Origin: an uncultured archaeon
GTDB taxonomy: Archaea > Micrarchaeota > Micrarchaeia > Micrarchaeales > CABMGC01
Assembly (NCBI GenBank): GCA_963752955.1
Contig: CAVWAD010000005.1
Span: forward strand, 778-64,777
Length of the DNA: 64,000 nt
Direction: 5' to 3'
Shown here: piece after piece, positions 27,235 through 38,667 of the stretch
How the letters are laid out: every line of letters starts with the position of its first letter
How positions within the stretch are numbered: the first letter of the stretch is position 1
Notes under the pieces: generated by a model
Told to the model about the DNA's origin: nothing
The model's input: only the letters and a program-made list of their open reading frames with translations
Databases searched by the model: none
Position numbers and translations under genes: made by a program

Positions 27235-27248
27235 CAGCCCTGAGAGGG
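27235..27248. repeat. distal att core (copy of tRNA-Thr 3' end)
   Basis: Exact 14-nt match to 38654-38667. Confidence 0.55.
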
Positions 27249-27303
27249 CCGCCACAGCGGAAGTACGGTTCCCCACGTTGTTTTTCATGTGGTTCACCGT
27301 CGT

Positions 27304-27330
27304 CTATATATAATAGCCATTTATATATAG
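27304..27330 (+). promoter_or_regulatory. palindromic TATA-containing promoter/operator CTATATATA-N9-TATATATAG
   Basis: Same sequence and spacing as 22650-22676. It is preceded by the shared GGTTCACCGTCGT (27291-27303). Confidence 0.5.
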
Positions 27331-27336
27331 CTTACG

Positions 27337-27552
27337 ATGGAAAACGAGCGTATTGACTACCGGTCAAGGCGAACCCACAAGCCGGTGGCCAGGGACTGCA
27401 GCAGGGTCATGCAGCTGTCGAACGGCCAGTTCCTGGTGACCGTGCCCAGGGAGATCACGAGGTGGAAGCGCATCGGCAAGGGCACGCTGGTCAGGTGGTC
27501 CGACGGCGGGCCGGATAGAATAATAATAGACGTTCTGCAAGAAAAGGGATAA
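27337..27552 (+). CDS. small AbrB/SpoVT-like DNA-binding protein (71 aa)
   Basis: GQFLVTVPREITRWKRIGKGTLVRW. Clearly paralogous along its whole length to the 22683-22898 product. Confidence 0.5.
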   Translation: MENERIDYRSRRTHKPVARDCSRVMQLSNGQFLVTVPREITRWKRIGKGTLVRWSDGGPDRIIIDVLQEKG

Positions 27553-27652
27553 TTGATATTTAAATCTCGGCTTCTTACTCAAATATGGAGTTTATATCTT
27601 CCTTTCGAATTCTGCACCATCTTGCTTTAAATATTAAAAATGGTATGTGTAA

Positions 27653-36471: not shown

Positions 36472-36529
36472 TCTACTGCAGCCGTGGACAAAGCCGATCG
36501 CCCCTCTCGACCTAGAGGGCCACACCACA

Positions 36530-37315
36530 TCACGCATAGGCTAGGTTGCGCTTTTTTATTCCATTCTGGGCGAGATTAGCGCGCCTAATCTCAATCCTAC
36601 TCTTTGCCTCATTCATGCATTCAATCATCTCACCTTTCCTCTTTTCCGAGATTTGTCTTTTTACCGCAATTGCAATCGCCTCGTCTATTCCCCTGGATGC
36701 ATTTGCAAGTATCTTGGAATTTTTCAAGTTGTCTTTGGACTCGGTTTCATCAGAGGTAGATCTCATTATGTCATTAGCTGTGCGCAGTGCCATGCGCATT
36801 CTTTTCCTCGATTGAAGTTCTTCCTCAGTGCCTGCGGGGCTTCTGAGTAGATCTATCGCGAGATTGAGCGCATAGGACAGGTTGCGCTTTTTTACAATCT
36901 TAGTGCGATATGTTTTCGGTGCCGCGTACATGATTTTGGGTTTTACGAGGATTGTCGGAGCGATTGGAAGGGTCGGAGTGCGCACAATTTGCCCGGGCTG
37001 ACCTATCTCTTCTTTTGTCTGTTCTTGCCATGTTACGCCTGTCTTTATCTTCTCAGGGACGTCTGCCGGTGGAGGAGACGATTGCTGTGGCGGAGGTATA
37101 GGTGCGCTTCCTGAAGGCTTTTCTGAAGATGATGTCCTGTTCACAACCAGATCAATCAGCCAGATAATTACTTCTTCTAAGATTCTCACTAATATCTCAA
37201 AGGCGGAGTAGATGACTTCTAGCACTCGAATTAGCACCGCTCGCAAGGTGATCCATAAAGAAGAGCTCTCGCTTTCAGAATTACTTCCCGCAACAGCTTC
37301 CCTTTCTTCCCCCAT
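36530..37315 (-). CDS. hypothetical protein with Pro/Ser-rich linker and internal KKRNL(S/A)YA repeat
   Basis: 261-aa ORF. A 26-bp internal DNA repeat occurs at 36533-36558 and 36869-36894. Confidence 0.45.
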   Translation of the reverse strand: MGEEREAVAGSNSESESSSLWITLRAVLIRVLEVIYSAFEILVRILEEVIIWLIDLVVNRTSSSEKPSGSAPIPPPQQSSPPPADVPEKIKTGVTWQEQTKEEIGQPGQIVRTPTLPIAPTILVKPKIMYAAPKTYRTKIVKKRNLSYALNLAIDLLRSPAGTEEELQSRKRMRMALRTANDIMRSTSDETESKDNLKNSKILANASRGIDEAIAIAVKRQISEKRKGEMIECMNEAKSRIEIRRANLAQNGIKKRNLAYA

Positions 37316-37399
37316 GGTTAGTCATGAGTTTGAAAAGTGATAAATCTCTTTGCATATTGTGATACGTTAGCGCGGCGCACTGCCGTTCGTTCAGCACCA

Positions 37400-38587
37400 T
37401 CACTTGTTTTCCAACACCCCAAGAATCGCATCCCTGCTCTGCGGGTCAATCTTCTCCATCAGCAGGTCGACCGCTCGCGTCATTTTGTCCAGCTTCTGTT
37501 TCACTGACTCTAGCTCGTTTACCTCCTCCACCGGACTCACGTCCAGGGGGCTGTGGCACTTGCTGCAGTACTTGGCAGTCATCTCGTTGACTTCCTCGCA
37601 CTTGTAGCAGACCTTTATGGTGAGCCTCGGCTTCGCCGGCTCGCCCCTGCCGATCGTTATGCCGTTCGCCTTCATGACCGCGTCGTCCACGTCCTTGCCG
37701 CTCAGGTGGACGTAGACGGCGGCCATCTGGCTGCCGCCGGTCCAGCCAAAGTACTTCTTGAGCTGCTGCTCGGTCATGCTGTTCGCGTAGACGCTCGCCC
37801 TGCTGTGCCTGAACAGGTGCGGGTGTATGCGCTTCCTTATGCCCGTCCTCTCCTTCAGGTCAGAGAGCAGTTTCCTCACGTTCGGATAGTCGAAGGGATT
37901 CCCGTGGGACGTGAGGAACATGGCGGATTCCGGCGGCAGGCCCCTGCCGCGCTCGTTGAGGTAGTTGGACAGGTAAGGCACCGAGAAGACGAGAGTCACC
38001 CTCCTCTTGCCCGTCTTGCCGTCCACCATCGCGTAGCTGGGGCTTTCCGCGTTCAGGACGATGTCCCTTACCTTGAGGTTCAACAGCTCCCCCACGCGCA
38101 TCCCCGTGTCGTACAGGAGCGATATTATGGCCCTGTCCCTCTGGCTCCTGCACGCGTTTATGAGCCCGGCCACCTCGTCCTCCGTCAGGAGCTCCTCTGG
38201 CAGCTTCATGGACTCCATCTGGTCCACCTTGATCCACTTGACCAGGGCAGGGTAGTCGTCCGCCGAATAGAGCCACTTGTAGAAGCTCTTCAGGGTCTGC
38301 TTTATCTTCCTCAGGCTGTTCACGGCCTTGCCGCTCTTGTTGAGGTACAGAACAAGGCGCTCTATGTCCTCCTTCGTCGCCTTCCTGGCGTCCTTCCCGA
38401 GGTAGGGGAAGACGGCGCGCAGTTCCCTTATCACCCTCGCGACGGTCTGCGGCTTACGGTTGAGCAGCCCCAGCTTCGCGCCGAACGCGAGGACGTAGCC
38501 CCTGTTGGGCTCGGAGAGTTCCTCCGCTACCTTCCTGATCTGCATGGCCAGCACGTATTCGCCTTTGTGCAGGTAGTCCCTTTTCAT
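37400..38587 (-). CDS. tyrosine recombinase / integrase with C-terminal zinc ribbon
   Basis: LLYDTGMRVGEL (box I R), HLFRHSRA ... AAVYVHL (H-x-x-R ... Y), then KVCYKCEEVNEMTAKYCSKCHSPL. Confidence 0.9.
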   Translation of the reverse strand: MKRDYLHKGEYVLAMQIRKVAEELSEPNRGYVLAFGAKLGLLNRKPQTVARVIRELRAVFPYLGKDARKATKEDIERLVLYLNKSGKAVNSLRKIKQTLKSFYKWLYSADDYPALVKWIKVDQMESMKLPEELLTEDEVAGLINACRSQRDRAIISLLYDTGMRVGELLNLKVRDIVLNAESPSYAMVDGKTGKRRVTLVFSVPYLSNYLNERGRGLPPESAMFLTSHGNPFDYPNVRKLLSDLKERTGIRKRIHPHLFRHSRASVYANSMTEQQLKKYFGWTGGSQMAAVYVHLSGKDVDDAVMKANGITIGRGEPAKPRLTIKVCYKCEEVNEMTAKYCSKCHSPLDVSPVEEVNELESVKQKLDKMTRAVDLLMEKIDPQSRDAILGVLENK

Positions 38588-38653
38588 AGATTTTATGTCT
38601 GTTTCGCCCCCTTTATAGGCGGGTTGGCTAAGGGAGTCGCACTTCTGGCTGTC

Positions 38654-38667
38654 CAGCCCTGAGAGGG
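38654..38667. repeat. tRNA-proximal att core
   Basis: CAGCCCTGAGAGGG, identical to 27235-27248. It overlaps the 3' end of tRNA-Thr. Confidence 0.55.

Follow-up and report, generated by a model that had tools for sequence, protein, structure and literature searches.

Short attachment (att) cores have precedents in archaea, with lengths of 8, 11 and 13-14 bp (PMC8371274; PMC5861418). In Natrinema, the SNJ2 provirus sits in a tRNA gene with a core of 14 bp (PMC5861418), and in Thaumarchaeota the cores of cryptic integrated elements, as cited in PMC8371274, can be as short as 8 bp. DPANN archaea, Micrarchaeota, and zinc-ribbon integrases go unmentioned in the main review of archaeal tyrosine recombinases.

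The locus described here shares several traits with these archaeal type II-integrase elements (SNJ2 and the Thaumarchaeota elements): insertion at a specific site in a tRNA gene, which remains or again becomes intact, identical core copies of only 13-14 bp, an unsplit integrase gene adjoining one att site, and cargo of defence or restriction-modification (R-M) type. However, its integrase belongs to another family (a protein of about 395 aa that combines the canonical R-K-HxxR-W-Y set with a zinc ribbon at its C terminus), its host phylum is DPANN (Micrarchaeota), and its backbone is very small, with the integrase and two small proteins at the ends. SNJ2 also has virion genes, whereas none was detected in the tRNA-Thr element.

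In bacteria, the tycheposons of Prochlorococcus and the defence islands at tRNA genes are tRNA-targeting cargo elements that pile up in islands, and many tycheposons carry replication genes. Our locus resembles them in its tyrosine recombinase, its tRNA 3'-end target, its exchangeable cargo, and its stacking in tandem, which leaves decayed remnants and partial repeats of the tRNA. It differs from these bacterial elements in the domain of life, in an unrelated backbone, and in showing no replication genes.

We conclude that positions 27235-38667 of the window –the whole 64-kb stretch of DNA that we analysed– are a genuine, well-bounded 11.4-kb integrative element in a Micrarchaeota archaeon. 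With a probability of about 0.85, it is a single integrated copy of an integrative element family whose members are small (about 6-15 kb) and reside in Micrarchaeota (DPANN archaea). Its ends and its integrase are laid out as follows:

27235-27248, attL core: exact repeat of 38654-38667, copying the last 13 nt of tRNA-Thr(UGU) plus 1 nt
27249-27336, + strand, P' arm: motif AAGTACGGTTCCCCA at 27261-27275; the terminal small gene has its double-TATA promoter here
37400-38587, - strand, tyrosine integrase of 395 aa with a C-terminal zinc ribbon (Pfam Phage_integrase, PF00589, E=2.3e-24)
38588-38653, - strand, P arm: TATA box at 38612-38617, 25 nt upstream of the integrase ATG, and motif AAGGGAGTCGCACTT at 38630-38644
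38654-38667, attR core: the tRNA 3' end (13 nt) and 1 further nt
38655-38726, - strand, tRNA-Thr(UGU): the integration target, intact (ARAGORN)

The first-pass annotation had proposed a 14-bp direct repeat as the limits of the element, and both copies are present. The 14-mer CAGCCCTGAGAGGG lies on the + strand at both cores, 11,419 bp apart, and nowhere else in the window even when one mismatch is allowed (0.02 matches expected from shuffles). It is not a frequent genomic word either, with three occurrences in the 1.09-Mb genome against 0.008 expected. The third occurrence, at C4:384707, is a 17-mer that also includes 3 nt of the element side of attR, and no partner repeat was found for it within 1.4 kb. 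A chance repeat is ruled out by these expectations and by the replication of the repeat in four other elements. The tRNA-Thr(UGU) is the single copy of the UGU isoacceptor across the assembly. Comparing the tRNA region with the genome by blastn-short gave no longer or alternative att site further left, and an approximate search allowing up to 3 mismatches gave no further core copies leftward.

Independent relatives with the same layout confirmed the proposal of an integrative element at tRNA-Thr(UGU). Three other elements, with integrases 57-70% identical to this one, repeat 11-13 bp of a tRNA 3' end; tRNA-Thr is the target of two of them and tRNA-Arg that of the third. The attL 13-mer also bounds the L030 element (integrase 70% identical, tRNA-Thr(UGU)), where the 13-bp repeat CCCTCTCAGGGCT is found at 78-90 and 6285-6297 and a host FBPase gene lies directly outside. 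A 1-nt variant of it bounds L115 (62% identical, tRNA-Thr(CGU)), with 13-bp repeat copies 10.7 kb apart, and L031 (57% identical, tRNA-Arg(GCG)) presents 11-13-bp partial repeats.

Within the same genus, genome G002 has a 93% identical integrase at the same tRNA, with the same junctions and different cargo. Its outer attL, with one mismatch, is 15.2 kb away, and an inner degenerate attL is also present. At the nucleotide level the integrase block is 91% identical to G002, versus 73-83% for host genes. The empty tRNA-Thr site to be looked for in a related genome was found in G003, of the same genus, which has an identical and unoccupied tRNA-Thr(UGU), no arm and no integrase within 15 kb, and is colinear with the host flanks of the window. 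Relatives differ in the genes that lie between the conserved ends, and the related strains did not show the same gene content without the repeat.

The integrase ORF is intact and sits just inside attR, which agrees with the first description of a tyrosine integrase with a C-terminal zinc ribbon inside the tRNA-proximal repeat. Residues R164, K191, H257, R260, W282, and Y292 are invariant across an alignment of 40 homologues, and this canonical R-K-HxxR-W-Y set in the Phage_integrase domain places the protein in the tyrosine recombinase superfamily. The zinc ribbon occupies residues 327-344, and its four cysteines (CxxC...CxxC) are invariant or nearly so in the same 40 homologues. The ribbon had been described as an extra domain; it is indeed present, but it is a trait of the whole family and is also found in an archaeal pleolipovirus integrase.

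The organisation is that of archaeal type II (non-suicidal) integrases, with attP outside the integrase ORF and the gene whole after integration. An SSV-type (type I, suicidal) integrase, defined by an attP within the gene that is split in two by integration, was excluded because the gene is uninterrupted and the core lies outside it. The pNOB8-type subfamily is recognised by the motif R...YxxR...Y (PMC8371274); it was excluded too, since the motif here is H257-x-x-R260 and only the organisation resembles pNOB8. Among solved structures, the nearest to the integrase are XerA-type (4a8e, 5hxy; E about 1e-17), with the same catalytic motif. XerA, however, is conserved, single-copy, unlinked to tRNA genes or mobile elements, and acts at dif, whereas the element integrase is tRNA-adjacent (9 of 11 fetched loci), is patchy (10 of 41 related genomes and 53 of the 201 in the order, 0-4 copies each), and is longer by about 70 residues at its C terminus. 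Its patchy distribution and tRNA linkage exclude a housekeeping Xer or XerA chromosome-dimer resolvase.

Both att arms recur in relatives. The P arm has a mean column identity of 92% in an alignment of the window, G002, and L030, and homologues of the P' arm align in G002 (two copies), in L030, and in a relic at 22637. In the rebuilt attP, AAGGGAGTCGCACTT (left) and AAGTACGGTTCCCCA (right) form an inverted repeat that flanks the core. This repeat has 11-13 matches out of 15 in three rebuilt attPs, among which its sequence co-varies between elements. The integrase ATG is 67 bp from the core and the small terminal gene 88 bp inside attL, so the two genes would diverge from attP in the circular form. 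Neither the attR/attP nor the attL/attP junction pattern turned up in collections of metagenome, viral, and genome contigs, a weak negative since the same collections lack the L030 contig.

The interior is a mosaic with an AT-rich cargo block, as first described: GC is 0.356 in the cargo (27553-33685) and 0.507 in the backbone (33686-38653), against 0.563 in the genome. The genes between the two arms, other than the integrase, are:

27337-27552, + strand, small terminal backbone protein, 71 aa, adjoining attL
27653-29593, + strand, 646-aa cargo protein, perhaps a nuclease (FokI cleavage domain matched below threshold, E=0.001, 19 bits versus a cut-off of 25)
29645-30391, + strand, 248-aa cargo protein, no family match in Pfam, PADLOC, or PHROGs
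30388-31356, - strand, AbiJ-type abortive-infection protein (Pfam AbiJ_NTD3 5.5e-47, Abi_C 8.8e-14; PADLOC AbiJ 5.3e-11)
31409-32512, - strand, type II restriction endonuclease, CfrBI-like (Pfam RE_CfrBI 9.3e-23; PADLOC REase_II 1e-68)
32513-33685, - strand, N4/N6 DNA methyltransferase, partner of the endonuclease (Pfam N6_N4_Mtase 1.2e-43; PADLOC MTase_II 2.5e-142)
34062-34631, + strand, 189-aa backbone protein with an N-terminal CxxC...H...C..H zinc-finger-like motif (63% identity over 68 aa to a G002 element gene)
34635-35204, - strand, compact D12-class DNA methyltransferase-like protein, 189 aa (Pfam MethyltransfD12 5.2e-5; PHROG DNA methyltransferase 1.8e-8)
35201-35494, - strand, second small backbone protein, 97 aa in calls made elsewhere (the longest ORF extends to 35557; 62% identical to L030 5073-5480)
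35695-36471, + strand, 258-aa protein whose N-terminus weakly matches a MarR-like winged helix (Pfam MarR 6.9e-4, below cut-off)
36530-37315, - strand, 261-aa protein, no family match in Pfam, PADLOC, or PHROGs

Pfam and PADLOC support the defence genes proposed for the cargo. The AbiJ-type protein combines an AbiJ N-terminal domain with Abi_C, which assigns it to AbiJ abortive infection, and the CfrBI-like endonuclease gene adjoins a methyltransferase gene of the cognate type, which makes the pair a type II R-M system. The label FokI-like for the 646-aa protein was not retained because the match is under the Pfam cut-off; PADLOC and PHROGs gave no match for this protein.

The backbone in common with the relatives consists of the integrase, the 71-aa protein at the far end, and the 97-aa protein, all about 60-70% identical to their L030 counterparts. 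Homologues of the 71-aa protein, 56-77% identical, adjoin attL in G002, L030, and L031. It occurs in 13 of the 201 genomes of the order, nine of which also have the integrase (Fisher p=0.001 for the co-occurrence), and in at least five further genomes the two genes are at opposite ends, 4-11 kb apart. It has no Pfam match and is a candidate DNA-binding regulator or directionality factor. The 97-aa protein has only six clusters in a collection of 5.8 billion proteins, none with a Pfam domain. The first-pass annotation had called some of the small regulators AbrB-like, a label that found no support in Pfam, PDB sequences, or a usable fold. For the 71-aa and 97-aa proteins, SpoVT_AbrB gave no Pfam match at E<=5, and there was no PDB sequence or profile match. 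The AF2 models (pLDDT 60 and 45, respectively) have a beta-beta-alpha-beta-beta order that is compatible with AbrB and not diagnostic, and a Foldseek search with the 71-aa model returned nothing at E<=0.001.

The 189-aa zinc-finger-like protein has no Pfam match. In L118, a 186-aa D12-type homologue follows the same neighbour gene. The 258-aa protein could not be aligned to the L030 protein at the same position.

Outside attL, the sequence is also of mobile origin:

22637-27164, older stacked mobile DNA: relic element pieces and insertion sequences
27165-27234, relic junction: degenerate P-arm end, degenerate core at 27192-27204, and about 30 nt from the start of a P' arm

The relic junction can be aligned with the attPs rebuilt for three elements, and G002 has the same relic. 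At 22637-22898, a piece of a P' arm is accompanied by a paralogous copy of the small terminal gene; this segment has 76% nucleotide identity to 27291-27552. The same region holds a NIF3-like gene split by IS66, with both halves found, a truncated 285-aa gene, and an AAA_14/DUF4143 ATPase (PADLOC candidate PDC-S01, 9.7e-111). The block 25627-27246 is 92% identical to G002, versus the 73-83% of host genes. What lies left of 27235 is older stacked mobile DNA and not original host DNA. The tRNA-Thr(UGU) is a stacking hotspot because earlier occupants left relics to its left.

This flank also bears on a different delimitation, in which the entire variable zone, about 19.2-38.65 kb, would move as one large island and the repeat at 27235 would be just an internal remnant. 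Compared with G003, all between about 18.1 kb and the tRNA is extra, GC stays under the genome mean from 17 to 38 kb, and the AAA_14 block is as close to G002 as the integrase block is. However, in L030 and L115 the 13-bp core delimits a complete unit and host genes follow immediately outside, and the G002 attL is at the same position with different content on the element side. Moreover, the left zone has attL-type relics of its own and four IS copies, as stacking and decay produce, and no more core copies appear leftward even with up to 3 mismatches allowed. Thus, we consider a single large island very unlikely.

We regard as highly improbable that the element is a provirus, for example pleolipovirus-like, with structural genes too divergent to recognise. 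The nearest annotated-virus integrases do come from archaeal pleomorphic viruses, with 30-35% identity over nearly the full length, CxxC...CxxC ribbon included (ThalV2 gp01, 32% over 371 aa; Geoglobus acetivorans pleomorphic virus 1, 35%). In IMG/VR there were no close integrase relatives, and a profile search there found family members at <=36% identity only, at the ends of predicted proviruses. Several backbone proteins have no assigned function. However, those two viruses have VP3/VP4-like and rolling-circle Rep genes, which are missing from the element: tblastx against ThalV2 matched the integrase only. The element contains no PHROG structural family, in line with the earlier view that it is no provirus, as no capsid, portal, or terminase gene had been recognised. 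The content between the conserved ends varies, and the relative L030, only 6.2 kb long, is mostly R-M and small regulators. An integrated plasmid whose replication initiator goes unrecognised is scarcely credible. The iteron-like GTTATC/GATAAC cluster at the cargo/backbone junction (33945-34064) could be an origin, and the 258-aa winged-helix and 261-aa proteins have no assigned function; against this, Pfam, PHROGs, and PADLOC gave no Rep, primase, helicase, or partition gene, the winged-helix protein is not conserved in L030, and no circular contig was found in contig collections. As had been recommended, we searched plasmid and virus records: the backbone proteins –the 258-aa protein among them– had no match in 72,556 plasmid records or in phage records.

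Of the earlier alternative "integrated plasmid or defence island", the defence island stands with its R-M and AbiJ genes, and the integrated plasmid has no support, as no replication gene was found, although four backbone proteins could be given no function. Replication, transfer, and virion genes were not detected in the element by Pfam, PHROGs, or PADLOC. The term that fits it best is non-replicative integrative defence element. About half of the backbone proteins have no recognisable function, and a novel replication or packaging gene could hide there.

For this integrative defence element we propose the following mechanism. The integrase would recombine attP with the extreme 3' end of tRNA-Thr(UGU). 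The attP would consist of a 67-nt P arm with the integrase promoter, the 13-bp core, and a P' arm with the promoter of the terminal small gene. Strand exchange would take place inside the 13-nt identity, which spans the T-stem 3' strand, the acceptor 3' strand, and the discriminator, and would keep the tRNA intact at attR and leave a spare copy of the core at attL. Exchangeable cargo, here the AT-rich block with the CfrBI-like type II R-M pair, AbiJ, and the 646/248-aa pair, fills the middle of the element. We infer where exchange takes place, what the arms, the zinc ribbon, and the small proteins do, that the element still excises, and how it passes between cells.

A broader idea is speculative and, in our opinion, rather unlikely. 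Elements with this integrase and the small proteins may be a widespread undescribed family of minimal Micrarchaeota cargo shuttles. Such shuttles would lack their own genes for replication and transfer, would exchange one defence cassette for another between the two conserved ends, and would pass from species to species, perhaps by hitch-hiking on a helper virus or vesicle, or through DPANN cell-cell contact. Their attP would be unusually long and palindromic, with outer repeats that co-vary with the element and are maybe read by the zinc ribbon or the terminal small protein.

Integrative defence islands that target tRNA genes are classical, and this element is an ordinary example that adds little conceptually. 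The mobile elements of DPANN archaea are nevertheless poorly catalogued. The locus and its relatives give a clean att site, with a 13-bp core and defined arms, and define a compact integrase family. They could help to annotate islands in small archaeal genomes and might supply a site-specific integration tool for organisms without genetics. For the Micrarchaeota themselves, they indicate that R-M and Abi systems travel between species on such elements.

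Window positions 27235-38667 constitute a real and well-bounded integrative defence element. The window contains just two copies of the word CAGCCCTGAGAGGG, 27235-27248 (attL) and 38654-38667 (attR), and allowing one mismatch adds no third (shuffles expect 0.02). Since ARAGORN assigns minus-strand positions 38655-38726 to tRNA-Thr(UGU), the right repeat is the last 13 nt of this tRNA plus one base, exactly as the first-pass annotation had described its 14-bp direct repeat. That annotation had also considered that the 14-mer could be a frequent genomic word; the whole genome (1.09-Mb assembly, 15 contigs, GC 0.563) contains three copies against 0.008 expected.

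The third copy lies outside the window, within a 17-mer (GTCCAGCCCTGAGAGGG, contig C4:384707-384723) that includes 3 nt from the element side of attR. A gene resembling ATP-dependent DNA ligases stops 5 bp before the 17-mer, a Fic/Doc-like 123-aa gene lies downstream, and the DNA upstream of the 17-mer contains TATA-N6-TTGGCT, as does the P arm (the integrase side of the core, 38588-38653). This copy has no partner repeat within 1.4 kb and may have been left behind by an integration at a secondary site.

Features of the element, from attL to attR by block
Adjoining attL: 71-aa protein
27553-33685, cargo block, GC 0.356
Cargo: type II restriction endonuclease, CfrBI-like (Pfam 9.3e-23; PADLOC 1e-68)
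Cargo: N4/N6 methyltransferase adjoining the endonuclease (Pfam 1.2e-43; PADLOC 2.5e-142)
Cargo: AbiJ (5.5e-47 and 8.8e-14)
Cargo: 646-aa protein, sole match a sub-threshold one to FokI cleavage
Cargo: 248-aa protein, function unassigned
33686-38653, backbone, GC 0.507
Backbone: Cys/His-motif protein
Backbone: compact D12-like methyltransferase, 189 aa
Backbone: small protein, 97-118 aa
Backbone: 258-aa protein, weak MarR-type wHTH
Backbone: 261-aa protein, function unassigned
Backbone: 37400-38587, minus strand, tyrosine recombinase (integrase), 395 aa (Pfam Phage_integrase 2.3e-24; weak double-zinc-ribbon match)

Gene content and composition agreed with what had been read from the sequence: an AT-rich cargo with defence genes, an intermediate-GC backbone, and a tyrosine integrase with a C-terminal zinc ribbon just inside the tRNA-proximal repeat. 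The absence of virion genes also held, and neither replication nor transfer genes were found in the element by PHROGs, Pfam, or PADLOC. At the cargo/backbone junction (33945-34064), GTTATC/GATAAC motifs cluster and the beginning of the Cys/His-protein gene is partly duplicated; this could be an array of operators or a region resembling an origin.

The integrase starts 67 bp from the core and is, by its organisation, of the non-suicidal type II. R164, K191, H257, R260, W282, and Y292 do not vary among 40 homologues, in which the four zinc-ribbon cysteines are also invariant or nearly so. Its motif is HxxR, which rules out the pNOB8-type (YxxR) and the SSV-type (KxxR) as defined in PMC8371274. 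The nearest solved structures are XerA-type (1e-17). Among annotated viruses, the nearest integrases are those of archaeal pleomorphic viruses: ThalV2 gp01 shares 32% identity over 371 aa and likewise presents a zinc ribbon, but ThalV2 has nothing else in common with the element. A core of 13-14 bp is not anomalous, since archaeal att cores down to 8, 11, and 13-14 bp have been listed (PMC8371274), SNJ2 being a case in point (PMC5861418). The review PMC8371274 makes no mention of DPANN or of zinc-ribbon integrases.

Independent relatives confirmed the proposed boundary. L030, a JGI metagenome contig, encodes a 70% identical integrase (158-1342) beside a tRNA-Thr(UGU) (18-90); the last 13 nt of that tRNA, CCCTCTCAGGGCT, recur at 6285-6297, and a host FBPase gene follows immediately beyond the repeat. 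In L115 (integrase 62% identical, tRNA-Thr(CGU), type III R-M-like cargo in appearance), a variant 13-mer, CCCTCTCGGGGCT, ends the tRNA and has a second copy 10.7 kb away. L031 (57% identical, tRNA-Arg(GCG)) presents two partial tRNA-end copies of 11-13 nt at distances of 6.2 and 7.1 kb. From these three loci, the family's att core comprises the final ~13 nt of a tRNA, which makes 27235 a genuine attL. A 57% identical integrase downstream of tRNA-Arg(GCG) is found in an NCBI MAG labelled Candidatus Micrarchaeota, in the layout seen in G023, whose order is that of the window's genome; the host is therefore presumably a Micrarchaeota (DPANN) archaeon.

The window has a second tRNA-Thr (CGU) at 46487-46558, 7.8 kb away, 91% identical and with a similar promoter. 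Its 3' end, AGCCCCGAGAGGG, differs from the core by one mismatch and is exactly the L115 core variant, making it a potential second target.

The two ends of the element are also conserved. The 71-aa protein is 56-77% identical across five elements and adjoins attL every time. Within the order, its gene was present in 13 of 201 genomes, nine of which also carried the integrase (Fisher p=0.001), and in G107, G096, G131, G023, and a second element of G002 (a same-genus genome) both genes stand at opposite ends of one contig stretch, 4-11 kb apart. Three proteins of our element recur in L030, namely the integrase and the two small ones of 71 aa and 97 aa (62% for the latter), and no counterpart of the 258-aa wHTH protein was found in that comparison; G002 has the Cys/His protein in common with our element. 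Neither small protein matches Pfam, even at E<=5, or any PDB sequence. The low-confidence AF2 models (pLDDT 60 for the 71-aa protein, 45 for the 97-aa protein) display a beta-beta-alpha-beta-beta order compatible with AbrB/MazE, but a Foldseek search with the 71-aa model gave nothing significant, and the first-pass annotation's "AbrB-like" stays a candidate label. The 97-aa family comprises only six clusters in a collection of 5.8 billion proteins.

In a further JGI metagenome contig (L118, 6550-13318), the backbone block recurs as a 255-aa protein, a 93-aa small protein 2 (77% identity), a 186-aa mini D12 methyltransferase, and a 172-aa protein; it adjoins aminoacyl-tRNA synthetase genes and carries an MmeI-like type IIG enzyme as cargo, with no integrase or tRNA on the synthetase-gene side. 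Such a block may persist once an element decays, or join up with other ends.

Both arms flanking the core are conserved (alignments A1 and A2). In the P arm, a TATA box precedes the integrase ATG by 25 nt, and the P' arm (27249-27336) has a double-TATA promoter ahead of the small gene. We rebuilt the circle site (attP) for the window element, L030, and L115; all three present an imperfect inverted repeat (11-13/15) ~10-12 nt each side of the core, whose sequence varies between elements and agrees within each. The repeats are putative binding sites, for an accessory protein or the integrase itself; strand exchange would occur in the middle of the partly palindromic core, CCCT-GAG-AGGG. The element is probably still competent. 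Junction patterns had no match in contig collections, from which the L030 contig is also missing.

The left flank of the element is not original host DNA. Immediately outside attL, 27165-27234 aligns to the end of a P arm, to a core in degenerate form (27192-27204), and to the initial ~30 nt of a P' arm; this junction copy, also found in G002, explains why the 15-mer AAGTACGGTTCCCCA is present at both 27217 and 27261, one on each side of the core. Further left are an AAA_14/DUF4143 ATPase gene (25860-27149; PADLOC candidate defence family PDC-S01, 9.7e-111), whose block is 92% identical to G002 at the nucleotide level (host genes, 73-83%), a 285-aa gene that is truncated here and intact in G002, and a minus-strand NIF3/DUF34-like gene (22913-25163) split by an IS66-family copy (23111-24581), with no second NIF3 copy in the assembly. 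A P'-arm fragment with a 71-aa gene paralogue (22637-22898, 76% nucleotide identity) is truncated by an IS6-like copy, which abuts a nested IS. Within 19196-22636, the nest is an IS110/IS1111-like element inside an rve-family IS that abuts the IS6-like copy; IS6-like and IS66-like elements have many identical copies across the genome. The probable reading is one of successive integrations at the same tRNA, the newest element adjoining it and older ones decaying; only about 70 nt of one junction survive.

Same-genus genomes provided an occupied and an empty site. G003 lacks the entire 19.2-38.65 kb zone; colinearity between G003 and the window covers 11.7-18.1 kb to the left of the zone and 41.1-46.7 kb to its right. 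After the tRNA-Thr(UGU) of G003, identical to ours, come unrelated sequence and a pair of surface-protein genes, and a stretch of 15 kb contains no integrase; this is the unoccupied site whose comparison had been suggested. At the same tRNA, the single-contig genome G002 has a 93% identical integrase, a nearly identical P arm, and wholly different cargo. The sequence CAGCCCTGAGAGTG is found 15.2 kb further left, equally placed relative to the conserved AAA_14 ATPase gene, and an inner degenerate attL consists of CTGAGAGGG, the arm, and an intact small gene. G002 can likewise be read as a case of family members stacked at tRNA-Thr. The second family element of G002 (C1:323484-333218) has a 42% identical integrase adjoining tRNA-Cys(GCA) and a small-terminal-gene homologue 8.3 kb away.

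The integrase family was present in 10 of 41 and 53 of 201 related genomes (0-4 copies per genome, commonly at contig ends), and 9 of 11 fetched loci had a tRNA gene beside it (Thr, Arg, Val, Glu, Ala, Cys, Gly). Genomes of the relatives measure 0.6-1.3 Mb. The integrase block of our element is 91% identical to that of G002 at the nucleotide level, compared with 73-83% for host genes, which argues for recent exchange between species.
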